A DNA stretch of 64,000 nt from an uncultured Candidatus Saccharibacteria bacterium (GTDB taxonomy: Bacteria; Patescibacteriota; Minisyncoccia; Phycocordibacterales; UBA9973): contig CAZYBS010000001.1 in the NCBI GenBank assembly GCA_964645245.1, forward strand, positions 526 through 64,525, written 5' to 3'. The stretch's first letter is position 1. Each line of letters opens with the position of its first letter. Positions 1,823 through 55,944 of this stretch are shown one piece after another. A program made the translations under genes and the position numbers. Under the pieces are notes generated by a model, which was not told the origin of the DNA, ran no database searches, and saw only the letters and a program-made list of their open reading frames with translations.

Positions 1823-3544
1823 TCAATGCTGGTAAAAACCCCTGGCTTCCGAGTCGGGAAGCATTATTAAATTCACGCCTTTTGTCCTGCAAAGCTCTAT
1901 TATTTTCTCATCATTGACTGAACCGCTGGTGGAAAAAATCGTTTTTATTCCACGACCGATGAGCACTTCCGGCGCGTCCGGAAAAGGAAAGAAGCTGTCG
2001 CTGTATGCGACAGCTTCTTTCAAATCCGCTATAGTTTCGGATTTAGGAGCTAAGCTCCCAAAAGGGAGCTTAGCTCCTAAATCGTTAGCAAATGCTGCCG
2101 CCTCATCGGCACGGAAAATAGCCAGCTTGGCCGCCCCGACGCGGTCTTGCTGTCCAACACCGTTGCCATAAAGTCTGCCGCCTTTGACTAAAGTAATAGT
2201 ATTGCTATTTGAGGTTGAGCCGATAGCCCAAGCAAGCACTGCGTCCTTGCTCTCAATCGCCGGCACAAAAGTATAATTGGGCTGTTCCATAAAGCCGCCC
2301 CGGACATAACGGAACCTTCTGGCATTATCTAAGGCAGACAATCCTGCTTTTAAAATGCCGCGGTTTGCTAAAAGCCGACATTTGCCTCCTTTACGAGAGA
2401 GAATTTGTTTTGCTTCTTCCGAGAATGACGGCGCGGCAACAACATCAAGCAGCCGTCTATTCGTTCCGGCATATTTGTGTATCAATTCTTCGGCTATTTT
2501 TTCATCAACATTAAAATTAAGCATTACCGAGCCGCCGAAAATTGCGCGCAGATCTCCCAATAGCATTTTGCCAATGGCATCGAGCCCTGACTCTCCTGTG
2601 CCTGCTCCGCAGGCATTGCCGTGCTTTGCCCCAATGGCAACACTTGACACTTCGCCGAAATTTTTTTCAAATCCAGCGCCAATGTGCGTCATCGTCTGCA
2701 TCATTCTGTCCAAATCGCAAATATTATTATAGGAAAGAGGGCTTCCGGCAACCAGAGCCCAATTATGAATCGCAAGCTTATCTTCACTAGCTGGGTCTTG
2801 CCTAGCTAGTTTGTACAAACTGGCAGGTTTTTGATAGGCATTTTCGCCGTATAATAAGGATTCTAAATTCCCGCCCGAACGACTAACGTCATCCAGTCGG
2901 GCGGGCTTCTTCCCAAAAATTCCTTTGTATTCGCCTTTACCATGATATTCACCTGAGACAGAGCAATATCTCGCAATTAATATCTCTGCTTTAGCAGCCA
3001 AATCATTTAAAAATTCTTCGCGATTGGGCTCGCCATTTTTGAGCCACTTAAGTACTGCTGCTCTATCAGAAGGTTCGCAAATTGTGATACGTCGCCCCTT
3101 CGCGCTTGAACGAATTAAAGCCACTCCACCCATATCCGTTTTTTCCAGTACCCCTTTCCTTCCTCCCCCTACGTAGGGGGAGGTGCCAGGGGCGGAGGGG
3201 GCATATTTTGCAATTTCTTCTTCGAGCGGGTACAGATCTACGCACACCAAATCAATCCAAGGAATGTCATATTTTTCAAGTTCAGCCAAGTGCTCGGGTG
3301 TGTCTAAGGCCAAAAGTCCGCCGTGAATCTTTGGATGAAGAGTCACAACACGATGACCTAAAATAGCGGGAAATCCGGTAATATCTGCCACATCGGTAAC
3401 GCTTACTCCAGCATCAGATAAATGCTTGGCCGTACCGCCGGAAGAAATGATTTTCCAGCCTAAATTTGCCAAACTTTGAGCAAAGTCCGCGATACCCGTT
3501 TTGTCATATACAGAAATTAGCGCTATTTTCTGTCTTTGTTCCAT
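1823..3544 (-). CDS. purH: bifunctional AICAR transformylase / IMP cyclohydrolase PurH
   Basis: MGS-like N-terminal domain (ALISVYDKTG...GGTAK) followed by AICARFT domain; 573 aa, lengthened by two in-frame palindromic insertions. Confidence 0.9.
   Translation of the reverse strand: MEQRQKIALISVYDKTGIADFAQSLANLGWKIISSGGTAKHLSDAGVSVTDVADITGFPAILGHRVVTLHPKIHGGLLALDTPEHLAELEKYDIPWIDLVCVDLYPLEEEIAKYAPSAPGTSPYVGGGRKGVLEKTDMGGVALIRSSAKGRRITICEPSDRAAVLKWLKNGEPNREEFLNDLAAKAEILIARYCSVSGEYHGKGEYKGIFGKKPARLDDVSRSGGNLESLLYGENAYQKPASLYKLARQDPASEDKLAIHNWALVAGSPLSYNNICDLDRMMQTMTHIGAGFEKNFGEVSSVAIGAKHGNACGAGTGESGLDAIGKMLLGDLRAIFGGSVMLNFNVDEKIAEELIHKYAGTNRRLLDVVAAPSFSEEAKQILSRKGGKCRLLANRGILKAGLSALDNARRFRYVRGGFMEQPNYTFVPAIESKDAVLAWAIGSTSNSNTITLVKGGRLYGNGVGQQDRVGAAKLAIFRADEAAAFANDLGAKLPFGSLAPKSETIADLKEAVAYSDSFFPFPDAPEVLIGRGIKTIFSTSGSVNDEKIIELCRTKGVNLIMLPDSEARGFYQH
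2870..2905. repeat. family-2 palindrome (variant loop) in-frame in purH
   Basis: cccgcccgaacgactaacgtcatccagtcgggcggg. Confidence 0.75.
3151..3202. repeat. family-1 GC palindrome inserted in-frame in purH
   Basis: cctccccctacgtagggggagg plus flanking G/C runs; encodes KYAPSAPGTSPYVGGGRKG absent from canonical PurH. Confidence 0.75.
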
Positions 3545-3550
3545 ATTGAA

Positions 3551-3925
3551 TTACTTTAATTCCACTTTCCCTCCGGCTGTTTCAATTTTTTTCTTAAGTT
3601 CTTCAGCTTCGGCTTTCTTCATTCCCGCTTTTAAGGTTCCCGGAGCGGCATCAACCAAATCTTTGGCATCCTTCAGTCCGAGACCCAAGACTTCTTTTAC
3701 GATTTTCATCACCGCAATTTTCTGTTCACCGGCAGATGCCAGAACGGCAGTAAAAGTATTTTGCTCCTCCTTTGCCTCGCTCGCCTCGCTGTCGCTTTGG
3801 CGAAGCGGGCCGGAGCCTTGAGCAGACACTCCAAACTTTTCCTCCAATGCCCTGACAAGCTCATGTAAGTCCAATACGGACATAGTTTCTATTTTTTCTA
3901 TAAGGTCTTTAAATTTTTCTGACAT
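3551..3925 (-). CDS. rplL: 50S ribosomal protein L7/L12
   Basis: 124 aa, conserved C-terminal domain KIAVMKIVKEVLGLGLKDAKDLVD...GGKVELK. Confidence 0.9.
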   Translation of the reverse strand: MSEKFKDLIEKIETMSVLDLHELVRALEEKFGVSAQGSGPLRQSDSEASEAKEEQNTFTAVLASAGEQKIAVMKIVKEVLGLGLKDAKDLVDAAPGTLKAGMKKAEAEELKKKIETAGGKVELK

Positions 3926-3936
3926 AATTCTAATTA

Positions 3937-4944: not shown

Positions 4945-6975
4945 CTAAATATCCGAATCTGACCAGACATCAGAATTATTGCGATGCAGACGGGCAAAAC
5001 TATAGGGAGCGTTAGGTACACATGCCACGCCAATTGCCGGTGCACAATTTGTTCCTGTTCCTGTTAAAAAAGTAGCAACATAGTACCAACCTACATAATT
5101 CGCATAACCAGCCGAACCTGAAAATTTTTGTCCATTACCCATAGCGGTATAAGAACTGCCAGAACAAGAAAAAACTTCAACTGGGCCAATTGGAGACTCA
5201 TTCATAAAGTTATAAGAATTATCAGTATCTGAAATAGCGTACATTACACGACTGCCTGAGTTAGCGACACAAGACAAAATAATATCTTGGGTAAATTCCC
5301 CAGTACTGGCAAAGGTGGGAAAAATTTGGATGGCAGAATTAGCTACCTGTCCATTAATTATTAGAGTATTCGCAGCTACTGTGGTATAAGCAACATTTGA
5401 ATTACCAACGGCATCGGTCAAGATAACGCTAGCTGGAACAGTGCCGGATGCCCTGTTGGTATTTCCGGAAACCACAGTGTAAGTAGCTGTGTAAATATTA
5501 CCTCCGGCATTTGTAAATCCAGTGGTCGCTACTCCATTAACAGTAATTGTTCCAGCGGTATAGTTCGCACCATCAGCCGTAATGGTTAAAGTAACAGTGC
5601 CACCGACTCCTTTAGAGCCAGAATTCGGAGTAAGAGTCAGGGCAGAAATCACAGGCGGGGTGGTGTCAGCCGGTGCTGGTGTCGGGTATGGTGTCGCATA
5701 TGGTGTTGAATATGGAGTCGAGTATGGTGTTTGGTAAGGCAATGGCAGATTGGCTGCCGCTACGCCGCCGCCGCCAGGCAAGAGACTGGGGTGGGAGATT
5801 TCTGGTACAACCCCCTCGGATTCCCCCTTGTCAGGGGGAACTGCCTCCCCTGATAAGGGGAGGTCAGGAGGGGTTTTTTCGGTATCTGCTATGGGAACAT
5901 TATCGACAACCGGTTTAGCTCCGACGCTTTCAGTCGGAGTCCCAACTTTAGTCGGGAGATTTTCTTTGGTAGAATTTTCGGTAGGTTCGGAGGAAGTGTC
6001 CTGTGACGCAGGAATACCGGCAAGAATTACAGCTGCGGCATTATTGGGGTTTTTATTAGTAAAAGACTTAGCAAAAGAATATGCATTTGACGCTATTTGT
6101 ATTACTTTATTTCCAATGGCCAAGCCAACCTTCTTAACTGTATTTTTTGCCAGAGCAATACCAGCCTTGCCAGAATCAATCGGATGATCAACAAAAGACA
6201 GCAGATTTCTTTGTAATTCATGCGCAAAGGTAACTGCGGGAGGATTTATGCATGGCATATACACATTTTGCATATTATTTGTTTGAAGTTTTTCAAGCGA
6301 CGATTCTATATCGGAAACAATTTTCGCGCCTTGATATTTTAAGTAAACGTCGGAAAAACTGTGACCGTCAGGGTCATCTGACAGCTGAAACAGAATATGG
6401 GTATTGGGTGGCAATATTTTAAGTACACGCCCGACACGCGCAGCGATAACTCTATCTGTATCGGAAGTTATGTAATTTCCTCCTCCGGCCACATGGGAAG
6501 CCGGAGTGGCCACGCCATATACACCAATGGACTCTCTCGGGATAGAGGCTAAGCCTCTATCTGTAACTTTATCGTAAAAATTATTGGCATAAAAGTTGCC
6601 TTGGGAATGGCCGACCAGTAATAATTTTTGAGTGGTGACCTTTTGACTGGCATCATTCCACATTTCGATCAGATCATAATCGGATTTTTCATCAAAAAGT
6701 CCTTGCTGTACGGCGTCTATGAGATCAAGAGCTCCGCCGGCGTGGGATGGGTTATGAAGAAAATCTATAGTTACAAATTCATTTTTGTATATTTTTGTTA
6801 ACTTATCTTCAAGAGCTTTTTTATTTTCTTGTGCTCCTCTTTGGTCAGTATTTATTCCGTTGATTGTAAAAATAGAATATCCAACAGGTGAACAAGCCCC
6901 CACCTGAGCAAAAACAAAACTAGGTAATAAAGATATGATTAGCGCAAAAATAACTAATTTAAAAAACAAGGTCAT
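4945..6975 (-). CDS. secreted alpha/beta-hydrolase (lipase/esterase-like, GHSQG nucleophile elbow) with Pro/Thr-rich linker and C-terminal Ig-like domains
   Basis: signal peptide MTLFFKLVIFALIISLLPSFVFA (start moved to internal Met to avoid overlap with the upstream gene), GXSXG motif GHSQG, PYxTPY repeats, beta-rich C-terminus; carries an in-frame GC-palindrome insertion at 5811-5880. Confidence 0.55.
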   Translation of the reverse strand: MTLFFKLVIFALIISLLPSFVFAQVGACSPVGYSIFTINGINTDQRGAQENKKALEDKLTKIYKNEFVTIDFLHNPSHAGGALDLIDAVQQGLFDEKSDYDLIEMWNDASQKVTTQKLLLVGHSQGNFYANNFYDKVTDRGLASIPRESIGVYGVATPASHVAGGGNYITSDTDRVIAARVGRVLKILPPNTHILFQLSDDPDGHSFSDVYLKYQGAKIVSDIESSLEKLQTNNMQNVYMPCINPPAVTFAHELQRNLLSFVDHPIDSGKAGIALAKNTVKKVGLAIGNKVIQIASNAYSFAKSFTNKNPNNAAAVILAGIPASQDTSSEPTENSTKENLPTKVGTPTESVGAKPVVDNVPIADTEKTPPDLPLSGEAVPPDKGESEGVVPEISHPSLLPGGGGVAAANLPLPYQTPYSTPYSTPYATPYPTPAPADTTPPVISALTLTPNSGSKGVGGTVTLTITADGANYTAGTITVNGVATTGFTNAGGNIYTATYTVVSGNTNRASGTVPASVILTDAVGNSNVAYTTVAANTLIINGQVANSAIQIFPTFASTGEFTQDIILSCVANSGSRVMYAISDTDNSYNFMNESPIGPVEVFSCSGSSYTAMGNGQKFSGSAGYANYVGWYYVATFLTGTGTNCAPAIGVACVPNAPYSFARLHRNNSDVWSDSDI
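5811..5880. repeat. family-1 GC palindromes (two hairpins) in-frame in hydrolase gene
   Basis: tcccccttgtcaggggga and cctcccctgataaggggagg followed by ggaggggtttttt. Confidence 0.75.
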
Positions 6976-8005: not shown

Positions 8006-8120
8006 GCCTCTTCCCCCTCTCCTTGAACCCCTTTGTATTCCCCCTTATCAGGGGGAAATCATTTGTCTCCCCTGATAAGGGGAGGTCAGGAGGGGTTGGA
8101 GAGGGGCTGGGGAGAGGTCG
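8006..8120. repeat. intergenic tandem cluster of family-1 GC palindromes
   Basis: cccccttatcaggggga, ctcccctgataaggggag, ggaggggttggagaggggctggggagagg. Confidence 0.8.
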
Positions 8121-8650: not shown

Positions 8651-8880
8651 TTACTTCGCCATAGCGTTCATCAAAGCTTTTGTTTTCTTGCCGATCAGGC
8701 CGTCAGCTTTCAGGCCATTGTCCTTTTGCCATTGCTTGATAACAGCAATGGTCTTGGGACCGAGTTTGCCATCCAGGACTAGACCCAGATTCAAGACTTT
8801 GTTCAAGAATCTTTGCAGCTCCTTGACCGGTTCACCTTTGCTGCCGCTCTTCAGAGTGACGGTGCCGAAATTGTAGGGTG
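8651..8880 (-). repeat. peptidoglycan-binding-domain 3' cassette, copy 1 (end of giant gene)
   Basis: ~230 bp ~93% identical to 15744-15970. Confidence 0.8.
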
Positions 8881-11800
8881 TAGCTGGAGTAGCCGGCGTT
8901 GCAGAGCTTACTCCCGGAACTGCCGGGGTAGCCGGTGTTGCAGGAGCGGCCGTACTTACAATATTCCCTACACAGGACTTACCTGTAACTGTGCTGAAAC
9001 CAGTGGTTCTATTGCCACAGCCAGTAATTGCTGTTGGGGTAGTCGCAGTTGTGGTAGGAGTGGTGGTCGTAGTAGTAGAAGGAGTACTTGAACTGCTGGA
9101 GCTGCTGCTCGAGGTACTGGCTGCGGGAGAATAAGATGCTCCTGAAGAAGCCGCAGCGCTGGCAATAAATGTTGGAACGGCTGAAGACGCGCTGCTTGCG
9201 GCCGATTCATCTCCAGTCGAATTTAGCGCGCTGATTTTAAAGTAATAAGTCGTCCCGGAAGTCAAGCCCGTTGCTTGAAAACCCACTGAAGTAGACGAAC
9301 CAGCTAGAGGGAAACTGCTATTATCGGTGGATTGGTAAATATTATAACTGGCAGCGTTGGCTACGGCTGTCCAGCTGAGACCAACAATAGTTCCGCTATT
9401 AGGCTGGATAGAGAGCGTCAGACCAGTTGGTGTGGCTGGAGGAGTTCCGCCGGACGCAACCATTGGGGCAAAGTCGGACAAGTGAGAAACTGTGGCGGTC
9501 AGAGTATTAAGAGTTGTGTCCACGGTGGTTGACAAGGTGTCGTAAGTTTGGTTCGCATCATTCCACACACCAATCACTAGCGATGCTTCACTCGTGCCGG
9601 CGGGCAAATCACCTTCGGTATATGGAATGGTGATTGTAATTTCGTCATTCAAGCTGGAAATCGGCGAGCCGTCAGAACCTACCGCGTCAATTGATACCGC
9701 GTTCTTAGAAAGGATAGCGCCGCTTGGCGGATTAGGCATAGCCGTATTAACCCTAGTCGTGACCGTTGCGGCATTAGAGCCCGTGCCCAATGCGTTGGCC
9801 GGAATTTCCATTTGGAAGAAATTGCCAATGTCAGTGTTGGTTAGGAATCCTCCAGATGCGGGAGTAACAGTTTCCGGACGTTCCGCTTTAATGGTAAAGC
9901 CGGAAATCGCGGTCAAGGCAAGGTTTTGGCCTGAAGGACTATTGTTGCTGACCGTGACCGGTAAAGGACCGCCTTCGTAGCCGTGGCTATGAGCTCTTAT
10001 CGTCCAGGTGCCATTATCCACGTTGAGGGTATAAGCGCCCGCGGCATTAGTCTGGGCTACGGCGTAGCCGCCGGCTCCATCGGTAGCGTCAACAAAGGCA
10101 TTAGACACGCCGCTGGCATCAATGGTAATCGTACCAGTAATGGTTCTGGCAGCAGTAGTTAAGGCGATAGTGCTTACGGCAACGGTTGCGTTTGTCACCG
10201 TAGCGGTGCTTTCGGCCGGAGATTTGTATCCCGGCTTGTCGGCCCGAACTTTATACACTCCCGGCGGAACACTAATACTGAATGTTCCATTGGAAGCGGT
10301 TTGTCCGCCTAAGAAGATAGTGTTGGTTTGTCCAGTTGGAGTTCCGTTCAAAGACACCCAAGCGCCAGATAAAGCCGATCCATCTCCGTTCACTGTTCCA
10401 GTTACCGCATATAGTACTCCAGCCGATGCCGTGTAGGTAATCGTGCGCGTGGTATTAACCCCGGTGGTTGTTCCGACACTGCCATAGGCCGGATGCCCTG
10501 CCCGGACAGTATACGTTCCCGGTGGAACAACCACGGTATAAACCGCGTTGGCGCCGGAAGTGGTTGAGGTTGAAGTAAAGTTACCGCGGCCATTGGAATC
10601 ACGAACTTCCACTCCGGCATTGGCAATGGCATTGGTGCCATCAGTGATATTAATCGTAATGGTGATAGGCGCCGCTTGGGTGCAATTTTTTCCGGAAGTA
10701 GTAGTGTTAGCCGTCACCGCAATACCGGTTACCGGCGTGCCTTCTCCGACTCCCGGGAAATAACAAACAAGCGAATAAGTTCCAGCTGGAACCCTTAAGC
10801 TGTAAGTGCCGTCAGAGCCAGTTGTGGTCATATTGCCGCTAGAGCCCGTAGAATCCTCCGCCCGCACCATCACGCCCTGCACGGCAACAGTTGCCTGCGT
10901 GGCAGTACCGGTAATGGTCCCCATAGATAAACTTTGCGCGGAGAAATCCTGACCGCTGGAACTGCTGGTGGTAATCGTAATAGTTTTGGTTCCCAAGCGT
11001 CCAAAGCCGGGAGCAAAAGCTTCCACGACCCAAGTGCCGGCCGAGACATACAGAGTGTAGGCGCCGTTAGCGTCAGTCGGACCACCGACAAAGTTTCCGC
11101 TATCGCCTCCAACGGCTGTGGTATTGGAAGTGGAAACGACTTTGCGTCCGGAAACACCAGCGTAAGAGATGGCATTGCCTGAATCGTCTTTAATCGTTCC
11201 GGTAATAGTCAAAGTGGTTGCGGCATCAAGCACGAAGGCGAGAGTGGTTGGAGTATTGGCAGATGCGCCCACGGTAATTTGTTTTTCTGGAACCGGCGGC
11301 ATGCCCGGTTTAAACACTCCGCAGAGGTAAACTCCCTGGACTGTCTTTAAGGTAAAGGCCCCGGTAGTTCCAGTTTGGCCGCCGGTGCCGAATCCGCCGG
11401 CCGAACCAGTGGTGGATGCGGCTACTGGACGGCAGAAGACACCAGCACCGGAGACTCCGGTACCCGCAGAATCAACTACGGTTCCAGTAATGGTTTTATC
11501 AGCCGTGGATAAAACGAAGGCCAGCGCCGGGACAGTTGAGTTAGAGACACTGACACCTGCCACATTTACCTGAACGCTTGGCGGAGGCATGAAAGAAAAG
11601 TCCGGTGGTGGTGGAGGCGGAGCGCCCGGAGTAAAGGAAGTTTCCGGCATGGCTGGGCCAACTCCAATATTGTAAGAACTATTGGCCAAAACCGGCAGAG
11701 AATAAGCAACGGGAGACCCGGTCATCGTTAAGGTCTTTTTAGTAAAACCATTGGGCGAAGAAGCAAAAATGTCCACTTTCGTAGTATTGGCCCCATTGAT

Positions 11801-14800
11801 AGTGCCGGAGATTGTTAGAGCCGCGGCATTGCTTAAGGCAAAGTTTTTGGTATGAGTTGCTGCATCCGAGGTAATCTTATGCGACTGGGGCATGGAGTTA
11901 AATGCTACATCAATCGCCGCGGTCGGCTTAAGCCCGACCATATAATCACCGTCGGCCAGATTAGTAAAGGTCGCGACACCGGCAATACTGACGGTGGCCG
12001 TAGTAGCTTCTTGTCCTCCGGTAGCCGGACTGAATAAGTAGACGGTAACACTGTTAATACCTTCTCCAGAATCATTTGTACCATTTGTGTTAGCATCTTT
12101 AAATACATTCACCGTCAAAGTGCGAGAACCGGCAGCGCCCAAGAAGAACGGCGCCGCGGTTATGGTCTGTAAAGTTGCCCGATTATTGGCAGATGTATTT
12201 TTGGTCTGCATAGTCACAGTGTAGCCACTGCTTGAAGGTACTGTAGAATTAACAATGCCCGAAAGGTCCATGCAGATGAATGAATTGGCTCCGGTGGCTG
12301 CGGCTGCGGTAGTGGTAATGGTAATGGTACCTGCATCATTGTTAGCAACAACCGTATCAATAACAGGCGCGCCGGTAGCCGGACCGTTTAAGTCGGCATT
12401 GCAGAAACTTAAGGCTACAGCCACCTTGTCCGCTGCGGTCAGAGTAAACCCGGCAGGAAAAGTCAGAACAATCTGGCCGGTAGCAGGAATAGAGGTTCCG
12501 GCCAAAAATTCCACGTGATAATTGGAAGTAGCTCCAGCTCCCCGACTCATTGGCATCACCCGGCTCGGATTCATACCTTGCATACTCATGTCAATCGTGC
12601 CCCCGCCCGGACCAATTAGACCGCCGGAAGTGGCGGAATTGGCAACTGTGCCAAATTGAGTGTTCAAGGCAGGAGTACCAGTAACATCCATAACTTGGCT
12701 ACTCAAGTCTTGAACAACCGAAGAAACTGTGATTTTAAAAGTTGCAGGAGTTTCAGTGGTTCCATTTTGCAAGGACAAACCGGTAATGCGGGCCGTCTTG
12801 GTTCCCGCTTCATAGACTACAGTCTTCCCGCCTAAAGAGATGGAAGAACCGACAGGGCTTTCCAGAGTGAAGTTGGCAATATTGTCCGCCGCATTCGGTC
12901 CTCCACCTGATTTCATTTGTTCGGAGAAAGTAACAGCCACGCTGAAGTTATCGGCGTTAGCAAAAGTGAGTATTGGCTTGACCGTATCGGCGGTAGCTGT
13001 AGTGGTGAAGGCCGAAGTGTAATTGGCGGCCAGCGCGTTGGCTGAAAGGTCTTTGACGCGCGGATCACTTCCCCCACCGATTATCGTGAAGGTGTACTGT
13101 CCGTTTGAACCGCCGCCGGAACTGGATTCAAGGGCCGTACTTGGAGAAAAGCTGACAGACCGACTCTGTGGATTATAGGTAACACTGCCGGTAACTGCGG
13201 CGCTATTGCTGGTTTTCTTTAATGTTACAGTATTGGCGTTGATAGTAGAGGGATCCATATCCTCGCTGAAGCCAGCCGTCACGACTGTGCCAAGGGCAGC
13301 ACCCGTGGCGGCGTTGGCCGGCGAAACGCCTGAGACTGTCGGCGCTGTGGTGTCAGCTGCACCCGATGGTGTATGGAAGAATAAGAAATATGGCGCCGTA
13401 AGTACCGCACCCGTGGCGCTCGTTGCCGTAATGTTGACTTTGGCCACATAGCCGGTTGCTGCGGTCAAGGCCGAGGACGGGGTAAGTGTGACTGTTTTGG
13501 AAGGCGAATCATAAGCTTTGGTAGTAGTCACAGCGATTCCAGGAGCGCCGTTGACATCGGTAAACAATCCAATGTTGGCCGCATCGGTAATTGAACCTCC
13601 CCCGCTTGAGGCCATATCCACGCTAAATGTTAATTTAATAGGCGCGCCAATCGGATGAGTCTGGCTTCCCGGACTTGGCTGGCTGGATTGAACAAATGGA
13701 GGTGTGGTATTGGTTCCGCCGGTTGAGCCGGTGGTAAAGGTTACTGTTCCGTTGGCTGCCAGGGCATTGCCGGCGGAATCCTTAACTCCGGTAGTGACTG
13801 TCGTAACGTAAGTCGTAGAAATAGTCAAGTTGGCGGGAGCGTTGTCTAATCGCAATGCCGTGCCATTAACCGCGGCAGCGCCGGTGACAATGTGAAAGAC
13901 GTAAGAGTTATTGTTAAAGGCGTTGGCCGTGGTTTTGGCCATGACAATATCGCCGAACGAAAGCGCAGTGGCGGCAGTTACCGCTCCTTCTGCCCCTGGA
14001 GTGATTTTGGAAACTTGAGAAGAAGCGGCAAAAGTTGGAGCTCCACCGGTAGCGCCGTCTAAGCGTAAAGTTGTAGGCGCGATATCAGTAGTAATATTCT
14101 GGGCTGTAGTAACTATATGCCAAGCAAAAGAGTCAAGATTGTCTCCGTTGGTAGTAACTTTGGCAAATACCAAATCACCGACTACAAAGTTAATGCCGCT
14201 GTCTACACTACCCACCACTTGACTTGAGGCGTTAACTGCAGAAGTATCGTTAGGAGCAATGGTTGAAAATTTAGAGCCGGAAACATAAGCCGGCGCCGCT
14301 CCCGCACCGTCAAGTCTTAGAGAAGTGTTATTAACTGCAGCACCAGTTGTTACTATATGCCAGTTATATTTAACATCAGTAGGGTTGGTTGTAGTATTTA
14401 CGACAATTATATCACCGGCGGTGACAGAAGTCGCAGCAGTGACAGCGCCCGTGGCCGTCGGAGTGGCAACCTTGGTGACCTGGCTGGAACCATGCAAGGG
14501 AAAACCGTTGAAAGCGAATGTTCCAGAAGTCAAGGTAGCATCTGTGATTAAACCAACGTCTGACGGGAAGGTTTCGTGCTGTTTGATGACAATATCACCA
14601 ACTGTGGGAGAAGCATAACCGGTGGGCGGCTGCGGAGAAATAGGATTGGTGCCGGCAATCGGATAGAAAGCGGTGGAAGTGCTCCCGAGCTTGGCAAAAC
14701 GCGAGCTGTCCGCAAAAGTTGGGGTATTGGAAACAACCACATCAAAGCCATCGGGGAATGGTCGAATACCGGCGCCCACCGGAGTGCCGCCACTGGTGAA

Positions 14801-15514: not shown

Positions 15515-15615
15515 AAAAATATTTAAGATTAAAAGCTAATAAAAAAGACGACGTTCTTTTTATATATAAAAGTCATTTTTTATTATACCACTAATTTATT
15601 ACACCACACTTAAGA

Positions 15616-15627
15616 TGTGGATAACTC
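15616..15627 (-). promoter_or_regulatory. GAGTTATCCACA upstream element, 28 nt before tggtataat (promoter of giant surface gene)
   Basis: gagttatccacatcttaagtgtggtgtaataaattagtggtataat. Confidence 0.5.
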
Positions 15628-15633
15628 AAACAC

Positions 15634-15661
15634 AAAAAACCACTCTGAAAAGTGGTTTTTT
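15634..15661 (-). terminator. rho-independent terminator hairpin
   Basis: aaaaaaccactctgaaaagtggtttttt, stem flanked by A/T runs (potentially bidirectional). Confidence 0.6.
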
Positions 15662-15666
15662 GCATT

Positions 15667-15726
15667 CACCTCTCCCCTTCGCCCCTCTCCATAAGAGAGC
15701 TTATGGAGAGGGGTTGGGGTGAGGCT
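15667..15726. repeat. family-1 GC palindrome downstream of 15744-16547 gene
   Basis: cctctccccttcgcccctctccataagagagcttatggagaggggttggggtgagg. Confidence 0.8.
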
Positions 15727-15743
15727 ACTAATTTACAAATTTT

Positions 15744-15970
15744 CTACTTCGCCATCGCATTCATCAGAGCTTTTGTTTTCTTGCCGATCAGGCCATCAGC
15801 TTTCAGGCCATTGTCCTTTTGCCATTTCTTGATGACGGCAATGGTCTTGGGACCAAGTTTACCATCCAGGACTAGACCCAGATTCAAGACTTTGTTCAAG
15901 AATCTTTGCAGTTCCTTGACTGGTTCACCTTTACTGCCGCTCTTCAGAGTAGTGGTGCCGAAGTTGTAGG
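15744..15970 (-). repeat. peptidoglycan-binding-domain 3' cassette, copy 2
   Basis: ~230 bp ~93% identical to 8651-8880. Confidence 0.8.
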
Positions 15971-16547: not shown

Positions 16548-16641
16548 TTTGTTTTTAAGATTATATATACGGGATTCGACCCAGAGAAAGTTTCAAGAAA
16601 AATCCCGTATATTTATTTGTTGATAATGTACTTAACTTAAG

Positions 16642-16679
16642 CCTGCCCGCAATGCTACGCATATAGCGTTGCAGGCGGG
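16642..16679. repeat. family-3 palindrome, intergenic, just downstream of the 16691 gene stop
   Basis: cctgcccgcaatgctacgcatatagcgttgcaggcggg. Confidence 0.75.
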
Positions 16680-16690
16680 AAACAAAATAA

Positions 16691-18886: not shown

Positions 18887-19085
18887 AATCTTTTTCAGCC
18901 CGAGGCTGATCCGCCTTGGGCGGAAATAATAATTAATAATAATGTCACTAATAATTTTCCTCAATCGCCTAAGAGTGCCCTTAAGGGAATGCACTGTAAG
19001 ACAATTCAAGATGACAAAAGCGTATTCGACTCGCCAATGTGTCCCTAATTATACAATAGGAACAAATATTATGACACAAGGGGGG

Positions 19086-19097
19086 TGTGGATAACCC
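19086..19097 (-). promoter_or_regulatory. GGGTTATCCACA upstream element, ~32 nt before ttgtataat (promoter of Gly-rich surface gene)
   Basis: gggttatccacaccccccttgtgtcataatatttgttcctattgtataat. Confidence 0.45.
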
Positions 19098-19547: not shown

Positions 19548-19611
19548 AATAAATTCTTTTTTATGTTATTTGTAATAGAGATACTATAGAGGAATTTGAT
19601 ACAAAATACAA

Positions 19612-19682: not shown

Positions 19683-19688
19683 TAAATA

Positions 19689-26809: not shown

Positions 26810-27219
26810 ATCACAACGCAAAAAGAATATCACAAATAGCTGGCCTGTCTATTTTTTTTCTTCTGATTATTATTTACGCCTTTTTCCGCTCTCATGATTT
26901 AATTTTCGGAGTGAAAATAAAAAATGTAAATATAGTAGACGGGGCACCCGCCCGAACGACTGTTCAGTCGGGCGGGAAAGTTGCAAACAGTGTTCTCCAA
27001 GTGACAGGAAATGCGAGAAATGCGACAAACTTGACTTTAAACGGCCGGGAAATTTCAATAGACCAAGAAGGTAATTTCGACGAGACAATAGTTCTCCTGA
27101 TAGGATATAATATAATAAATATAACAGCCAAAGATAAATTTGGATATATTGATGAAAAAAATTATCAAATTATAAATAACGAGCGAAGTGAGTATATTTT
27201 ATTTGACCCTGTTAAATGA
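26806..27219 (+). CDS. hypothetical membrane-anchored protein
   Basis: 137 aa, start overlaps ftsK stop (ATGA), N-terminal TM; contains in-frame 30-bp family-2 palindrome. Confidence 0.4.
   Translation: MNHNAKRISQIAGLSIFFLLIIIYAFFRSHDLIFGVKIKNVNIVDGAPARTTVQSGGKVANSVLQVTGNARNATNLTLNGREISIDQEGNFDETIVLLIGYNIINITAKDKFGYIDEKNYQIINNERSEYILFDPVK
26947..26976. repeat. family-2 30-bp palindrome in-frame in ORF 26806-27219
   Basis: cccgcccgaacgactgttcagtcgggcggg (identical 30-mer). Confidence 0.85.
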
Positions 27220-30792: not shown

Positions 30793-31650
30793 CTAAATTG
30801 TAAATACTCGCTGGGCATTTGCAATCAAAGCTTGCGCAACTTCGTCTTCCGGCAGATTTTTAATCTCGGCAGTTTTTTTGACGACTTCTTTTACATAAGA
30901 GGGTTCATTACGTTTGCCTCGGTGTGGTACAGGAGTGACATACGGAGAATCTGTCTCAGACATAATCATATCAAGCGGCGTATTTCTGATAACTTCATCG
31001 TAGTCCCGGGTAAATGTAATGACCCCGGTAAAAGAAAGAGTAAAACCAAAATCCAAAAAACTTTTTGCTTCCTCCCAAGTCCCGGCAAAAAAATGCACAT
31101 TGCCTTTAACTTGAGCATAAGTCTTTAGAATTTCTAGAGCATCACTATAAGCCCGCCCGAACGACTGTTCAGTCGGGCGGGCATTGCGAATATGAAGCAT
31201 CAAGGGTTTATTAAATTCATTGGCCAGTTCTATTTGCTGTATAAAAGCTTCTTTTTGTTTTAATATTGACTCTTCGGTGCAACGATAATAATCCAACCCG
31301 CACTCGCCTATTCCGACTATTTTTTCATTTGCTTTTTTGTCTTTTAAAAGTTCTCGGTAAGATTCTTTATCAAAAACTTCTCCGCGCGAGGTAAATTCTT
31401 TTCCGCCAACACCTAACTCCTTTTCATCGTGATACGACACTCCAGTATGTATCGGGTGCAGTCCGATAATCGCATACACGCCTTCTTTATACTGATTGGC
31501 CATTTTCACCGCTTTTCTTGAAGTATCCATTTGCGTACCGACATTTATCACCCAGGTATTATTTTCCAAGGCGCGCTTAATCACCTCATCTCTATCTTCA
31601 TCAAAGGCCTTAAAATTAACATGGCTATGTATATCTATGTATTTGGGCAT
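30793..31650 (-). CDS. tatD: TatD-family metal-dependent hydrolase/DNase
   Basis: N-terminal IDIHSHVNF, TIM-barrel metal ligands; in-frame family-2 palindrome insertion (NARPTEQSFGRAYS). Confidence 0.85.
   Translation of the reverse strand: MPKYIDIHSHVNFKAFDEDRDEVIKRALENNTWVINVGTQMDTSRKAVKMANQYKEGVYAIIGLHPIHTGVSYHDEKELGVGGKEFTSRGEVFDKESYRELLKDKKANEKIVGIGECGLDYYRCTEESILKQKEAFIQQIELANEFNKPLMLHIRNARPTEQSFGRAYSDALEILKTYAQVKGNVHFFAGTWEEAKSFLDFGFTLSFTGVITFTRDYDEVIRNTPLDMIMSETDSPYVTPVPHRGKRNEPSYVKEVVKKTAEIKNLPEDEVAQALIANAQRVFTI
31152..31181. repeat. family-2 30-bp palindrome in-frame in tatD
   Basis: cccgcccgaacgactgttcagtcgggcggg (identical 30-mer). Confidence 0.85.
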
Positions 31651-50565: not shown

Positions 50566-52026
50566 TTATATTTCCCCTTCTAGTTTAAAAAAGCTTTTTA
50601 TGCTCCTGCCGAAAAGTCTATAAATAAAATATAAATAGACTAAAAGTGTCAAAAAAAGTGGAAAATCCGGAATGGATAACGAGGCAAATGGAATATTTGC
50701 GAAAAAACTAACGACTCCCAGCTCATAATGCAGCAGCAGATATGAAATATGGCCTAATGGTACAGCTAGTACATACCAAATAATTCCTAGAAAACTAGTC
50801 AGAAATCCCAGAAGCATTGTAAATGGAATAAAGGGAAGTATTAAAACATTTGCCGGCAATGCCACCAGTGACAAATTGCCCATTTTGTAAAGAATAAAAG
50901 GTAGGACAAAAATATATACTGCGCAAGTGACTGATATAATATCTCGCAACTTAAATTTGATGGTAACCCACCAGAAATATTTTTCAATTTTGGGCGCAAA
51001 GAAAATTATGGCAACAGTAGCAATAAAGGAAAGCTGAAAGGACACATCATAAACGAGAACAAACGGATTTAATAAAATCATAACAATACCAGCCAGGAGA
51101 AGTGCCCGCGCGACATCATAGTTTCGCCCAGTCGCGCGGGCCACAAGTACTAAAGTTGCCATTATTCCCGCTCTAAGTGCGGTAGAGCTTGCGCCGGTCA
51201 TTATGATAAATAAAAAGATTGCGAACATCCCCATTCCAATACCAAGATTCTTAGGAAGAAAGGCAAACAATTTCATAAACCATTCGGCAACTATTGTAAT
51301 GTTGTATCCGGACAAAGCGACAATATGTATCGTACCTGTGTCTATGAAACTTTTTCTTAAATCTTCACTAAACGCTGCCTTTTCGCCCAAGATGAGCCCA
51401 CCCATCAGCAAATTCTCTGGACTCCTGATGGCAAAATTAACTTTCTCTAAAAACTTACCTTTAATAGAAAATAAAAAACTTTTGATTTTATTGCCATTGC
51501 CTCGCGATACAATCTCAATGCTTGGATAATTCATCACATAAAAAACTCCGTCTTTCCTCAAGTAATTGACATAATCAAATTCTTTGCCCTGGTCGGTAAT
51601 AAAATTCTTCGGTTTCTCCAGTTTTCCTGAAAAACTAATCTCATCGCCATATCTATAATTATTTTCAGCATCGGTGGTAATTAAAATTTTGGTTTCTTTG
51701 GTTTGAATAATTAACTTTTGATTGTTCTCTCTTATGTCCGGTTCATCAACTATTTCACCAAACATTGAAATGGTCCGCAGTGCCGGCTTATCGGCAACAT
51801 GAAACCTGAAAATCCCTAGGCAAAATGCCAAAATAAAAATCGTCGATATTATATCCCAACGATACTTTAGTGAACTAAAGTTCTTTAGCAGACTAAAGTA
51901 AAGAATTAAGGCCCCAGTTAAGAGTAGGACCAGTAAAACTAAATACAAATTTACAAAAACAAAAGAGCGCAACAGCACCCCGAGAGCAAAACCGAAACAA
52001 GACAAATAAAAAATTCTATCTCGCAT
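50566..52026 (-). CDS. comEC: competence protein ComEC/Rec2, integral membrane DNA-channel domain only
   Basis: 486 aa, many TM helices, typical ComEC competence-domain segments (LRAGIMATLVLVARATGRNYDVARALLLAGIVMIL). Confidence 0.75.
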   Translation of the reverse strand: MRDRIFYLSCFGFALGVLLRSFVFVNLYLVLLVLLLTGALILYFSLLKNFSSLKYRWDIISTIFILAFCLGIFRFHVADKPALRTISMFGEIVDEPDIRENNQKLIIQTKETKILITTDAENNYRYGDEISFSGKLEKPKNFITDQGKEFDYVNYLRKDGVFYVMNYPSIEIVSRGNGNKIKSFLFSIKGKFLEKVNFAIRSPENLLMGGLILGEKAAFSEDLRKSFIDTGTIHIVALSGYNITIVAEWFMKLFAFLPKNLGIGMGMFAIFLFIIMTGASSTALRAGIMATLVLVARATGRNYDVARALLLAGIVMILLNPFVLVYDVSFQLSFIATVAIIFFAPKIEKYFWWVTIKFKLRDIISVTCAVYIFVLPFILYKMGNLSLVALPANVLILPFIPFTMLLGFLTSFLGIIWYVLAVPLGHISYLLLHYELGVVSFFANIPFASLSIPDFPLFLTLLVYLYFIYRLFGRSIKSFFKLEGEI

Positions 52027-52504: not shown

Positions 52505-52506
52505 AA

Positions 52507-54231
52507 TTAAGAAATATCAACTACTCTTAATCTTAACTCTTCTTTGCCTCTAAATCTAGACAAATCAAAGGTGGCTAAAAGATCAACGTTCTTATCTTCA
52601 GTCAGGGGTATTTTAAAAGAATCGTGATTAGAAAAAAAAGAAATTGCTTTGGCTTTATGTTTATCGGCATCAGAAAAAATAATTTCTAAATGTTCGCCGG
52701 AGCCATTTTTGCCGAACTTTTTAATATTTTCTATTTTCACATTTTCAAAAAGAAAAATTGGTTTTGGATTGCCAAGACCAAAAGGCGCGAGTTTTTCCAT
52801 TTCACGCCAATTTTTCATATTTACATCAACTAAAGAAAGTTTTGCATCAAAACCGACCCCCTCCCCCCTCCCCCTTGTCAAGGGGGAGGTGCTGGAAGCA
52901 GAGGGGGTAATTTTCGCGTAAGAGATAGATAAGGCTTCTTCTAAGAAATGAATTTTCTCATTATGAACTGTGAATCCTCCAGCCAGTTCGTGCCCGCCGA
53001 AATCCAGGAAATATTCTCGGTTTTCTGTCATCAGCTCCACCACCGATACTGACCCATCACTCCGGCAAGAGCCTTTGATACAATCATTTTCGTCTTTTCC
53101 CCAGACAAAAACAGGTTTTTTGTACTGATCCGAAATTTTCCCAGCCACCAGACCCAATATTCCTACACGCCAATTGGGATTACCCATTACGATAACATCT
53201 CTGTGTTCACGCAAAGGACTCATGCTAAACTTTTTATTTACTTCGCGCATAATACCGGTTACAATAGTTTTTCTCTCATCATTGATTTTGGATAAATAGT
53301 CTGCCAAGACTCCGCCCCTGGCCTCATCATCCGTTGCTAGAAGCTCAAAAGCCCGCAGTGGGTCATCCATGCGGGAAGCGGCATTAAGGCGAGGAGTAAC
53401 CATAAAGCATATATCATCCTCCGACAAATATCTTTGGTCAATATTCATTTTGGCTAAAAGCTTTTGCAAACCCGGGCGAGGAGATTTTCTCAACACTTTC
53501 ATTCCAAAATACGAGATAGCTCTATTTTCTCCTGTTAGCGGAACCATGTCAGAAAGCGTGGCCAAGCCTGCCATATCCAGCATCCACTTCTCAGAGCCCA
53601 TTTTGATTTTAAAATATTCGCCATACTTTTTTACAAAAGCTTGCGCGAACTTAAAAACCACCCCTGCGCCACAGAGCCCGCCCGAATCGCTACGCGAAGC
53701 GTTGCGGGCGGGCATTTTCCCCGGATAACCATCCACTTTTGGGTTCAGAATAGCGTAAGCCCGCGGCAAAATTTCGGGTGGAATATGATGGTCGGTAATT
53801 ATTACATCAATGCCATCTACCTCGGCTTGAGCCACCTCCGCCACGGCCGTAATACCAAGATCAATGGTTATCAAAAGTTTTACTCCTTTTTCGCTAAATT
53901 GTTTTATCGCATCAAGATTGAGCCCGTATCCTTCAGAATTTCTTTGAGGTATATAAATTTCATAATTTTTGTAATTTATTTTTTTTAACAAATCCTGTAA
54001 AATCACCGCTCCCGGAATTCCATCGCAATCATAATCCGCGTAAATGACTATTTTTTCTTTATTCTCTATTGCTTCAAAAAGCCGGACACAAGCCTTCTCC
54101 ATATCTTTCATTAAAAATGGGTCATGCAAATCTCTTTCGTAATTTGGATTAAGAAAAGTCTCCGCTTGTGTTTCGTCAGTAATTCCCCTCTTTTCTAAAA
54201 GTGTCCTTAGTAATTCGCCGTACTTTTGCAT
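52507..54231 (-). CDS. recJ: single-stranded-DNA-specific exonuclease RecJ
   Basis: DHH motifs (ADYDCDGI, ITDHH), DHHA1 domain; start set at MQKYGELL because the upstream ORF extension translates a repeat hairpin; in-frame family-1 insertion at 52855-52908. Confidence 0.85.
   Translation of the reverse strand: MQKYGELLRTLLEKRGITDETQAETFLNPNYERDLHDPFLMKDMEKACVRLFEAIENKEKIVIYADYDCDGIPGAVILQDLLKKINYKNYEIYIPQRNSEGYGLNLDAIKQFSEKGVKLLITIDLGITAVAEVAQAEVDGIDVIITDHHIPPEILPRAYAILNPKVDGYPGKMPARNASRSDSGGLCGAGVVFKFAQAFVKKYGEYFKIKMGSEKWMLDMAGLATLSDMVPLTGENRAISYFGMKVLRKSPRPGLQKLLAKMNIDQRYLSEDDICFMVTPRLNAASRMDDPLRAFELLATDDEARGGVLADYLSKINDERKTIVTGIMREVNKKFSMSPLREHRDVIVMGNPNWRVGILGLVAGKISDQYKKPVFVWGKDENDCIKGSCRSDGSVSVVELMTENREYFLDFGGHELAGGFTVHNEKIHFLEEALSISYAKITPSASSTSPLTRGRGEGVGFDAKLSLVDVNMKNWREMEKLAPFGLGNPKPIFLFENVKIENIKKFGKNGSGEHLEIIFSDADKHKAKAISFFSNHDSFKIPLTEDKNVDLLATFDLSRFRGKEELRLRVVDIS
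52855..52908. repeat. family-1 GC palindrome in-frame in recJ
   Basis: ctcccccttgtcaagggggag plus flanking C/G runs; encodes TSPLTRGRGEGVG. Confidence 0.75.
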
Positions 54232-54260
54232 AAATGGAATTTTAGCATATAATAGAGTAA

Positions 54261-54322
54261 ATAGAACAAATTTTTTGAAGGCGACGTTGCGAAGCAGGAG
54301 TCTGAAAAAACTTTGTTCTATG
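54261..54322. other. hairpin element, copy 1: 16-bp stem enclosing a conserved 30-nt loop (candidate RNA motif or protein-binding cruciform)
   Basis: atagaacaaatttttt-gaaggcgacgttgcgaagcaggagtctg-aaaaaactttgttctat. Confidence 0.5.
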
Positions 54323-54685
54323 AAACAATTTATGGAAAACTGTATTTTCTGCAAAATTATAAAAAAAGAAATACCTTGTACGAAAGTTTACGAGGATGAA
54401 AACTTTTTGGCTTTTTTGGATATAAACCCAATGGGTCCGGGACACACTCAGGTAATACCGAAAAAGCATTACAGATGGGTCTGGGATGTTCCAAATGCTG
54501 GAGAATTTTTTGAAGTTGCTAAGAAAATAGCCTTGGCTCAAAAAAAAGCATTTAATGCGGATATCGTGCGTTCCCAGGTTTACGGTGAAGAAATATCTCA
54601 TGCCCACATCTGGGTCTGGCCGGAAGTTGCCGGCGATGAAAAAGATTTGGTCGGGAATGCGAAAAAAATTATTTCAGCATTTTAA
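54320..54685 (+). CDS. HIT-family nucleotide hydrolase
   Basis: histidine triad ISHAHIWVWP, N-terminal CIFCKII. Confidence 0.8.
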   Translation: MKQFMENCIFCKIIKKEIPCTKVYEDENFLAFLDINPMGPGHTQVIPKKHYRWVWDVPNAGEFFEVAKKIALAQKKAFNADIVRSQVYGEEISHAHIWVWPEVAGDEKDLVGNAKKIISAF

Positions 54686-54690
54686 AGTAA

Positions 54691-55944
54691 TTACTTCAAT
54701 ATCAACGGTGTAAGCGCCGGAAGCTCTTTGCCGGCTAAAAATTCTAAGGTAGCGCCGGCAGCGAGGCTCACGTGTGAATAATCATCTAAATTTCCATACC
54801 GGCGCGCTATAATGGTAGTGTCTCCTCCAGCAAGGATAGTTTGTCCCCCCAGATTTTTGCTGAGTTCTTTCATGGCAGTAAGTATCGCTTCTCCACCATT
54901 TGCAAACTTTTCATCTTCAAACTTTCCCATCGGACCGGCCAGAAAAACAGTTTTAGATTGCGCAATTATGTCCATAAAATTTTTGACTGTTTTAGGCCCA
55001 ATATCAAGCGCTGCCCATTGGTCTGGCACCCCTTCGGAAAAAATATTGATAATTTTTGTTGAAACTCCGTCAGAAATCACCACATCTTCTGGATACACAA
55101 TTTTATCTTTATATTTTTGCAATATTTCTTTCGCATACAAAACCCAGTCTTTCTTTTCACGTTTCTTTTCATCTACAAAGACGTCTTCAATGAAAGAATC
55201 CCCAAGTGCTCTGCCTTGCGCTTTCAGAAAAACACTCGCCACGGCGCCACCCACCAGGACTGTGTCGGCTATTTTTAATAAACTATTTACCGCGTCTACT
55301 TTGTCAGAAATTTTTGCCCCGCCAATAATAACAGTGAAGGGATGTCTCGGACTCTCCAGCAAAGTAGATAACATTTCAACTTCACTCTTCAAATAAAGGC
55401 CGGCCACGGCCTCCAGATGCCGTTCAATGCCGGTCGTGGAAGCATGAATTCTATGGGCTTGAGGAAAACCATCAAAAACAATCAGGTCTTTCCCGCGGCA
55501 GAGCTTTTGCGCGAAAATATCATCATCAATCATTTCTTCGCTATAAAACCGTACATTTTCAAGCATCAGGATATCTCCCGGCTGCATTTTAGCAACTCTG
55601 TCATCAACCTCTTTACCGATACAGTCGTCTACTTTCAGAACCAGATGATGCAAAAGCAGGGAAAGTCTTTGCGCATGAGGCGTGGTGCGAAGTTGTTCCA
55701 CGACATGACCGTCAGGACGCCCGACGTAAGTCAGAATAACGATTTTACAATTTTCTTTCAGGAGATATTGAAGCGTCGGAAGCGTTGCTTTTATGCGCAT
55801 ATCGTCAACAAGCTCCCAAACGCCATTTACTTCCCCGCCCGAACGACTGTTCAGTCGGGCGGGTTTCACATCAATATCATAAGGAGCGCGGTAAAGAATA
55901 GTTTTCTCTTTTAAGTCTATATTTTGTAATGTTTTAAGTTTCAT
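54691..55944 (-). CDS. pgk: phosphoglycerate kinase
   Basis: full-length PGK with conserved N- and C-domain motifs; in-frame family-2 insertion near N-terminus (KPARLNSRSGGE). Confidence 0.95.
   Translation of the reverse strand: MKLKTLQNIDLKEKTILYRAPYDIDVKPARLNSRSGGEVNGVWELVDDMRIKATLPTLQYLLKENCKIVILTYVGRPDGHVVEQLRTTPHAQRLSLLLHHLVLKVDDCIGKEVDDRVAKMQPGDILMLENVRFYSEEMIDDDIFAQKLCRGKDLIVFDGFPQAHRIHASTTGIERHLEAVAGLYLKSEVEMLSTLLESPRHPFTVIIGGAKISDKVDAVNSLLKIADTVLVGGAVASVFLKAQGRALGDSFIEDVFVDEKKREKKDWVLYAKEILQKYKDKIVYPEDVVISDGVSTKIINIFSEGVPDQWAALDIGPKTVKNFMDIIAQSKTVFLAGPMGKFEDEKFANGGEAILTAMKELSKNLGGQTILAGGDTTIIARRYGNLDDYSHVSLAAGATLEFLAGKELPALTPLILK
55834..55863. repeat. family-2 30-bp palindrome in-frame in pgk
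   Basis: cccgcccgaacgactgttcagtcgggcggg (identical 30-mer). Confidence 0.85.

Follow-up and report, generated by a model that had tools for sequence, protein, structure and literature searches.

A hairpin repeated in frame in genes of a groundwater bacterium belongs to a cross-phylum family associated with a GIY-YIG nuclease and tRNA genes

How does one and the same 30-nucleotide sequence come to lie in frame inside unrelated proteins of a single bacterium? The question is raised by 64 kb of contig CAZYBS010000001.1 (the whole stretch analysed, hereafter the window), from an uncultured groundwater bacterium, in which an earlier note had recognised a mobile palindromic element inserted in frame in several genes. 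The window contains exactly three copies of the 30-mer, CCCGCCCGAACGACTGTTCAGTCGGGCGGG, namely 26947-26976, 31152-31181 and 55834-55863; the number of copies expected from 100 dinucleotide shuffles of the window is 0. A looser pattern, CCCGCCCG-N(4-30)-CGGGCGGG, recovers six copies, five of the six within genes. In order along the window, with the open reading frames (ORFs) that they occupy, they are:

331..362, minus strand (AACG on the minus strand): 32-nt relative with an inner stem of the TACCG/CGGTA type; intergenic
2870..2905, plus strand: 36-nt member with the same stems and the loop AACGTCATC; inside purH (1823-3544, minus strand), read as PARLDDVSRSGG
26947..26976, plus strand (AACG on the plus strand): 30-nt hairpin; inside ORF 26806-27219 (plus strand), read as PARTTVQSGG
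31152..31181, plus strand: identical 30-nt hairpin; inside tatD (30793-31650, minus strand), the opposite strand reading (N)ARPTEQSFGR(A)
53677..53712, no strand assigned: 36-nt relative with the outer stem CCCGCCCG/CGGGCGGG and the inner stem CGCT/AGCG; inside recJ (52507-54354, minus strand), read as PARNASRSDSGG
55834..55863, plus strand: identical 30-nt hairpin; inside pgk (54691-55944, minus strand), read as PARLNSRSGG between DIDVK and EVNGV

The exact matches and, by translation, the reported peptides in ORF 26806-27219, tatD and pgk were confirmed; the first of these encodes a small membrane-anchored protein with a Glucodextran_B-like domain (Pfam PF09136). Identity had been claimed for four proteins; it holds for these three, but purH carries the 36-nt form, which had been correctly described as a loop variant. 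The relative reported at 331-363 is present and spans 331-362, and the recJ copy is a sixth, absent from the earlier list. When the six copies are aligned together with their flanks, similarity ends exactly at the edges of the element. No target-site duplication, a criterion for miniature inverted-repeat transposable elements (MITEs), was found at the window insertions, where neither flanking residues nor flanking bases are repeated.

In the PGK alignment the insert comprises exactly 10 residues, DIDVK-PARLNSRSGG-EVNGV, its flanks are not duplicated, and it is missing from all 119 other homologues in the list, which are 68-77% identical. An AlphaFold2 (AF2) model of this protein, built from 40 sequences, retains the PGK fold with a mean predicted local distance difference test score (pLDDT) of 82.9. 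Residues 31-40, a turn between strands 26-28 and 43-45, are the sole stretch with pLDDT below 50, so that modelling PGK with its insert, a check the earlier note had proposed, leaves the fold intact and the insert a low-confidence, disordered turn. The TatD insert likewise corresponds to a gap of exactly 10 residues relative to PDB 1j6o. It is also exactly 10 residues relative to a homologue (P0143) whose empty site reads HIRNAYSDA, the filled site being HIRN-(10 residues)-AYSDA, and it is missing from the 119 other TatD homologues listed. The region of the purH element aligns poorly, and partly with gaps, to PDB 9ou7. Peptides spanning the inserts read, for example, DIDVKPAR... and ...SGGEVNGVWELVDDMR. 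Given the exact 10-residue length, the empty homologues and the turn in the PGK model, the PGK and TatD elements are lineage-specific DNA insertions tolerated as disordered surface loops. The proposal that the element is a real insert is thus borne out: it is inserted at the DNA level, is found in more than 100 independent assemblies and has no counterpart in the 119 listed homologues of PGK or of TatD.

The TatD site is also occupied in other Patescibacteria, where other Pro/Ala/Gly-rich inserts, such as VHPAPTEVGA and PAPDRTGGLAGN, follow HIRN (homologues P0132, P0141, P0158, P0137 and P0163). One of these homologues, P0163, contains at a different site the sequence PSSAQSFGQAR, which resembles a decayed copy of the 30-mer element. 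Old hairpin insertions may evolve into ordinary loops.

The family is not confined to this bacterium. A scan of one genome per species (GTDB) with the pattern CCCGCCCGAACGACT-N(0-12)-CAGTCGGGCGGG returned at least 119 loci, all from metagenome-assembled genomes (MAGs), one of which (L088) is deposited as a chromosome. Their labels cover many Patescibacteria classes, Bacteroidota, Ignavibacteria, Planctomycetota, Bdellovibrionales, one Gammaproteobacteria and one Nanoarchaeota contig. The exact 30-mer, for which the earlier note had suggested a search in other genomes, is present in 11 other loci of different taxa, inside or beside unrelated ORFs, which from inspection of the translations by eye we take to encode a Pif1-like helicase, Mfd, adenylosuccinate synthetase, EF-P, DNA polymerase I and acyl-CoA synthetase. 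Identical pairs of elements make up 18% of pairs within genomes and 2.4% between genomes (about 8-fold commoner within), an excess that points to apparent copying within genomes. To this extent the view that identical copies imply recent spread is weakly justified; on the other hand, the same 30-mer lies in unrelated genes of unrelated phyla, and identity between copies is therefore not a reliable clock. Only 2 hairpin hits were found in 2.9 million viral contigs, and the family is absent from the plasmid and cultured-phage collections, which led us to reject phages as the vector. In some Bacteroidota and Ignavibacteria MAGs (L006, L016, L017, L041 and L046; L002, L013 and L084) the hairpin sits within larger conserved repeat units, flanked as ..aagcgaaacattgggcaaga-hairpin-aatctaattc.. 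or ..gaaatc-hairpin-taaaatcta.., for which Rfam gave no match.

The element had been taken for a perfect palindrome; its reverse complement differs from it, however, and it is instead an imperfect hairpin. As single-stranded DNA the 30-mer folds with an outer stem of 9 bp, based on CCCGCCCG/CGGGCGGG, which encloses an unpaired AACG and an inner stem of 2-4 bp (ACTG/CAGT), with a minimum free energy of -11.5 kcal/mol (z = -4.5 against shuffles). The commonest form in the family is 36 nt long, CCCGCCCGAACGACTGAAGTCGTTCAGTCGGGCGGG, of which the window 30-mer is the version lacking AAGTCG and from which the purH form differs in the loop. Across the family, members measure 30-44 nt and combine the constant outer stem CCCGCCCG/CGGGCGGG and the unpaired AACG with an inner stem of 4-5 bp and a variable loop. 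Paired bases of the inner stem change together (ACTG/CAGT, ACCG/CGGT, TACC/GGTA, and TGCC/GGTA with G-T pairs) while AACG is kept, and this stem is paired in 90 of 108 distinct oriented elements. Rfam, searched at gathering thresholds with the window and 20 loci, matched only tRNAs and nothing at the hairpin. The 331-362 copy occupies the loop of a terminator-like hairpin, AAAAAAGATGTC[..]..GACATCTTTTTT. In three metagenome loci (L140:~1395-1455, L142:~1415-1480 and L187:~1410-1465) a hairpin of a second family, CCCGCCAGAAYGAC..GTCGGGYTGGCG, is nested in the loop of the first, indicating that hairpins insert into hairpin loops, as the 331-362 copy does.

The reading frame of the host genes follows a simple rule. 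Among copies flanked on both sides by at least 80 open codons, all 28 are a multiple of 3 long, the outcome of a check on length that the earlier note had proposed, and 23 are read straight through, whereas 27 of the 85 copies with short open flanks are not a multiple of 3. In the window the elements are read in three different frame and strand combinations, with the host ORF open each time. The earlier note had stressed that the host ORF always stays open. All window hosts are indeed open, but the rule is better seen as a survivorship filter, since a stop occurs in one of the six frames of the 30-mer (and in two of the six frames of the 36-mer) and every copy deep in an ORF has a length divisible by 3. 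The constant in-frame state is thus best read as the residue of purifying selection, not as a property of the insertion step. The same contrast in length between deep and shallow copies implies that the intragenic copies are probably translated rather than removed at the RNA level; together with the lack of an Rfam match, it led us to reject a self-splicing, endonuclease-spliced or other RNA-level intron.

A candidate partner for the hairpin emerged from an all-against-all comparison of the ORFs in the hairpin-selected loci. The most recurrent protein family there is a GIY-YIG nuclease of about 80 amino acids, with the hairpin immediately 5' of its gene. These proteins match Pfam PF01541 (E = 2e-11 to 3e-14) and are minimal, 79-86 amino acids without extra domains; a seven-member profile retrieved the UPF0213 structures PDB 1ywl (E = 4e-11) and 1zg2 (E = 1.5e-8), and more weakly SLX1 (6seh, E = 0.003). 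By these matches the gene is assigned to the Slx1/UPF0213 branch of the GIY-YIG superfamily, and its product is a predicted nuclease. Seven loci (L005, L033, L049, L052, L070, L083 and L105) share one layout: first the 5' part of a tRNA gene, into which the hairpin is inserted, then the GIY-YIG ORF and finally the same tRNA intact. The ORF often ends on T8-A9-G10 of the downstream tRNA, read as TAG; in L005, L033, L052, L070 and L083 it enters the tRNA, whose acceptor-stem bases supply the last 3-4 codons. In a Bacteroidales MAG (L102:2024-5015) nine tandem units of 327 bp directly follow an intact tRNA gene, each consisting of a tRNA 3' fragment, with a hairpin in its T-loop, and a GIY-YIG gene; this order mirrors that in Patescibacteria, where the gene sits upstream of the tRNA. 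The 331-362 copy of the window is identical to hairpins upstream of GIY-YIG genes in two metagenome loci (L133 and L141).

The association is reciprocal. In 80 metagenome loci picked by alignment to the nuclease protein alone, a CCCGCCCG...CGGGCGGG hairpin lies no more than 120 nt upstream of the nuclease gene in 49 (61%), and a tRNA gene starts at or just past the end of the ORF in about 65. Hairpin density is 5.4 per kb in the upstream stretch and 0.065 per kb over the remainder of these loci, an 83-fold enrichment; the density in the window, 0.09 per kb, is similar to this background. Those remnants seemingly without a hairpin that were inspected turn out to contain a hairpin that has decayed or one whose loop encloses another. 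The break that the hairpin makes in the tRNA remnant, resolved well in 36 cases, falls at one of a few discrete positions:

after tRNA nucleotide 20-22: 28 cases
after tRNA nucleotide 13: 2 cases
after tRNA nucleotide 9-10: 4 cases
after tRNA nucleotide 7: 2 cases

We take all 36 positions, by standard tRNA numbering, to be edges of the D-stem or acceptor stem. Genes for 15 different tRNA isoacceptors have been invaded, each with its 5' part duplicated, and the hairpin stands in either orientation relative to the GIY-YIG gene (18:14). It is a constant part of the GIY-YIG/tRNA cassette. MITEs derive from the ends of an autonomous element that encodes the mobilising enzyme; the cassette has a single internal hairpin and not two terminal repeats. 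Insertion into the D-loop of functional tRNAs was considered and rejected, as ARAGORN found no tRNA spanning the junction after the hairpin was removed in silico; the hairpin-bearing pieces are 5' remnants adjoining intact tRNAs. Some tRNA-like remnants (L067:~290-380, the tRNA-like region of L100, L036 and L039) contain two or three hairpins of different kinds, which occupy the D-loop and replace the anticodon loop, and adjoin an intact tRNA with no GIY-YIG gene between. These remnants resemble cassettes that have decayed, and they could mislead tRNA-finding programs.

The hairpin family, its spread across phyla, its precise, lineage-specific insertion in frame, the length filter and the reciprocal association with the GIY-YIG gene and the tRNA are established by these observations. 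We therefore consider it probable that the 30-mer is a shortened member, standing alone, of a widespread hairpin family linked to a GIY-YIG/tRNA module, and that solitary copies behave much like MITEs; the copies in the window are most likely MITE-like elements that derive from the cassette hairpin but are solitary and non-autonomous. The selfish module would consist of the hairpin-interrupted 5' tRNA remnant, the Slx1/UPF0213-type gene of about 80 codons and the intact copy of the same tRNA. Solitary copies would enter the genome at any place as DNA, facing either way, in a precise manner that duplicates no target sequence, and in gene-dense Patescibacteria most insertions would fall in ORFs. 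The survivors would be those with a length divisible by 3 and no stop in the host frame that lie in a tolerant surface loop, to be translated as disordered loops of 10-12 residues rich in Pro, Gly, Arg and Ser. The three identical 30-mers of the window may represent a local burst of a short, ORF-compatible variant.

How would such copies move? Slx1-type nucleases prefer branched and stem-loop DNA. From this preference, the reciprocal association and the precise insertion without duplication, which fits cutting at the base of a cruciform and rejoining, we infer that the GIY-YIG nuclease moves the hairpin. Acting in trans from elsewhere in the genome, it may excise the hairpin, insert it or do both, possibly by junction-type cleavage of the extruded cruciform, as Slx1 acts on branched DNA, and the cassette may ferry the hairpin between phyla. 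A stronger proposal, that hairpin and minimal Slx1-like nuclease together form a previously undescribed two-component mobile system, we put forward tentatively, as possible but on balance still doubtful. In such a system the nuclease gene would ride in tRNA genes while rebuilding an intact tRNA, and its cognate hairpin of 30-44 bp would move by cut and paste, or by copying, to sites all over the genome, including those in essential proteins.

Several results weigh against this reading. No GIY-YIG gene, Y1 transposase, tRNA gene, tRNA remnant or D-arm remnant was found in the 64-kb window, and all six copies there are consequently solitary. The exact 30-nt form never stands beside a GIY-YIG gene in the 80 protein-selected loci. 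Similarity between nucleases does not track the inner-stem type of their hairpins (permutation p = 0.64), giving no sign of cognate co-evolution. The flanks of solitary insertion sites show a weak palindromic preference, GATR/YATC (the slash marking the insertion point), unlike the D-arm sites in tRNAs, and solitary copies are not enriched at predicted stem/loop edges (p = 0.52). Hairpins might, moreover, persist in tRNA remnants only as neutral DNA or by breaking direct repeats that would otherwise delete the cassette.

The best-surviving alternative builds on these points. The hairpin would be an autonomous-looking selfish palindrome spread by host replication, repair or recombination, and the GIY-YIG cassette a frequent bystander; it might travel by template switching, by gene conversion following natural transformation or through some host enzyme. 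Hairpins would gather in the tRNA remnant since it is neutral, or since splitting a 27-34-bp direct repeat protects the cassette from deletion. The lack of a GIY-YIG gene in the window, the failure of nuclease and hairpin to co-vary and the difference between solitary and tRNA-remnant sites all speak for it. In addition, the genome encodes RecA and ComEC, making homologous exchange plausible, and several other GC-rich hairpin families in the window suggest general permissiveness at the host level. A neutral refuge of about 30 nt alone, however, cannot yield an 83-fold local enrichment and 61% occupancy; nearly every remnant holds a hairpin, at few discrete tRNA positions, and the same hairpin sequence family accompanies the cassette in different phyla. 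We regard this alternative as unlikely, though it deserves more weight than those that follow.

Could the hairpin instead be moved, as single-stranded DNA, by a Y1/HUH transposase of the IS200/RAYT type, like repetitive extragenic palindromic (REP) elements? REPs carry a GTAG or CGTC tag, are extragenic and are paired with a Y1/HUH enzyme whose gene is flanked by REPs. The hairpin matches them in size and in its imperfect-hairpin shape, and resembles REP/RAYT systems in that a short hairpin repeat accompanies a low-copy nuclease gene adjoining copies of the repeat; IS200-like Y1_Tnp genes (PF01797, E = 1e-9) are even present in 4 of the at least 119 loci (L014, L034, L109 and L112). But 0.7-5 kb separate these genes from the hairpin, copies of the hairpin do not flank them, and the window has no Y1 gene at all. 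The hairpin adjoins no conserved GTAG/CGTC tag, flank profiles giving only a weak G.T./.A.C preference, and its partner is a GIY-YIG nuclease wedged in a tRNA gene in place of a repeat-flanked Y1 gene. Moreover, REPs are extragenic and species-specific, whereas the hairpin family is cross-phylum and intragenic (five of six copies in the window and 23 read-through copies elsewhere). REPs are 20-40 bp long, imperfectly palindromic and repeated in many copies (Di Nocera et al. 2013, PMC3733652). An origin of the hairpin by the REP route is very improbable on these grounds.

The solitary copies act much like two further families of palindromic repeats that may lie in frame within genes. Rickettsia palindromic elements (RPEs), reportedly described by Ogata and colleagues in 2000, are said to be short palindromic repeats within protein-coding genes that leave the frame intact and add a translated segment to the protein surface. 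RNA genes and intergenic DNA harbour them as well; they measure about 100-150 bp, are confined to Rickettsia and are not known to have an associated nuclease. The hairpin likewise lies in frame in ORFs, with its translation indicated by the frame and the length filter, but it is set apart from RPEs by its length of 30-44 bp, and it is cross-phylum and tied to the GIY-YIG/tRNA cassette. The GC clusters of yeast mitochondria are GC-rich, palindromic mobile elements of 30-60 bp in an AT-rich, compact genome, located between genes and in some cases in frame in var1. The hairpin shares their GC-richness, their palindromic character and their ability to sit in frame within genes; GC clusters differ in being organellar, in their sequence, in their typically short target duplications and in having no associated nuclease gene. 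In phage T4, SegB is reported to be a free-standing GIY-YIG homing endonuclease whose gene lies in a tRNA gene cluster (PMC2330249). This is again a small GIY-YIG nuclease gene among or within tRNA genes that behaves as selfish DNA. Seg and I-TevI, though, are of the homing endonuclease/UvrC lineage and have DNA-binding domains, unlike the minimal Slx1/UPF0213 type of about 80 amino acids found here, and Seg systems have neither a hairpin repeat nor a duplicated tRNA half. CRISPR repeats, which form regular arrays with spacers of about 25-50 bp, were dismissed because the copies are solitary and the sole array (L102) has a period of 327 bp with a GIY-YIG gene in each unit. With no GTAG/CGTC tag, no confinement to extragenic DNA, no flanking Y1 gene, no target duplication and the wrong size for an RPE, the hairpin falls outside the RPE, GC-cluster and REP/RAYT families by their defining features.

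It is likewise very improbable that the hairpin is a selected host motif (a terminator or attenuator, an mRNA-stabilising stem, a protein-binding site or an RNA-level intron) and not a mobile insert. Its very stable stem, the terminator-like context of the 331-362 copy and the place of the cassette hairpin at the 5' end of the GIY-YIG message would suit such a role. They are outweighed by the fact that the hairpin points either way, both in host genes and beside the GIY-YIG gene (18:14), by the three different frames of the intragenic copies, by the listed PGK and TatD orthologues that lack the element (119 for each) and by the missing Rfam match, and the multiple-of-3 filter speaks against splicing. 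Finally, an assembly, adapter or amplification artefact can practically be discounted: every hit is a MAG or metagenome contig, and none is in the plasmid or cultured-phage collections, but the copies come from many independent studies and assemblers (with one MAG deposited as a chromosome), are internal to contigs, have variable loops with compensatory stem changes, obey the reading-frame filter and occur in a specific genetic context.

The window holds other hairpins besides. A second, more abundant GC-rich family, CCTCCCCC..GGGGGAGG / CCCCTCTCC..GGAGAGGGG, probably the one that the earlier note had called Family 1, occurs both inside ORFs (purH, recJ, and ORFs of 688, 256 and 357 amino acids) and in intergenic DNA; purH alone has at least three different hairpin insertions. 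Further hairpins have the form GCCCGC...GCGGGC. Their positions are:

3162-3183, 5821-5863, 8038-8084, 24059-24144, 28224-28246, 34838-34870, 52860-52907, 63511-63564 and others: second hairpin family
28755-28784: GCCCGC...GCGGGC hairpin in the EF-P gene (28515-29132)
51104-51141: GCCCGC...GCGGGC hairpin in the ComEC gene (50566-52026)
56910-56938: GCCCGC...GCGGGC hairpin

The EF-P hairpin, which resembles the recJ variant, is in frame as ARNASHSDAG, and the ComEC hairpin as ARATGRNYDVARA; in EF-P, Pfam detects the N- and C-terminal domains and not the central one. Separately, positions 8651-23348 have a G+C content of about 50%, against about 40% elsewhere, and very large minus-strand ORFs (2287, 772 and 1168 amino acids), which suggests a foreign or special region.

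The earlier reading of a mobile element inserted in frame was right in essence, and the cross-phylum family and the selfish GIY-YIG/tRNA module appear not to have been described. In the literature, for which full-text coverage was incomplete, we found no description of the hairpin, of in-frame palindromes in the candidate phyla radiation (CPR) or of tRNA-associated UPF0213 genes, and a study of tRNA introns in Patescibacteria does not mention such hairpins (PMC13011429). It is thus probable that the hairpin family and the tRNA-invading UPF0213 cassette are undescribed. Prokaryotic Slx1-like proteins have been considered mainly vertically inherited, with few horizontal transfers, and are cited as predicted to act in double-strand break repair (PMC1564403). 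If the link between hairpin and nuclease holds, a large Slx1/UPF0213 subfamily would instead be selfish elements that target tRNA genes, and a function would be at hand for prokaryotic GIY-YIG proteins of this type, known only from prediction and from structural-genomics structures. The pairing of repeat and nuclease would be a counterpart of REP/RAYT on a different nuclease fold, in which the cis element is exceptionally small and the range of hosts exceptionally wide, and its mechanism could be tested with one 80-amino-acid protein and one 36-nt hairpin. It may also explain some of the tRNA-like fragments that confuse tRNA finders. For the ultra-small bacteria themselves, it would mean that essential enzymes (PGK, PurH, TatD, RecJ and probably EF-P) keep gaining loops of 10-12 residues from mobile DNA, which bears on the origin of new protein loops and on the annotation and alignment of CPR proteins. 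Should the two-component system prove true, it would keep supplying the proteins of Patescibacteria, Bacteroidota and others with new surface loops, crossing the boundaries of phyla and possibly of domains.

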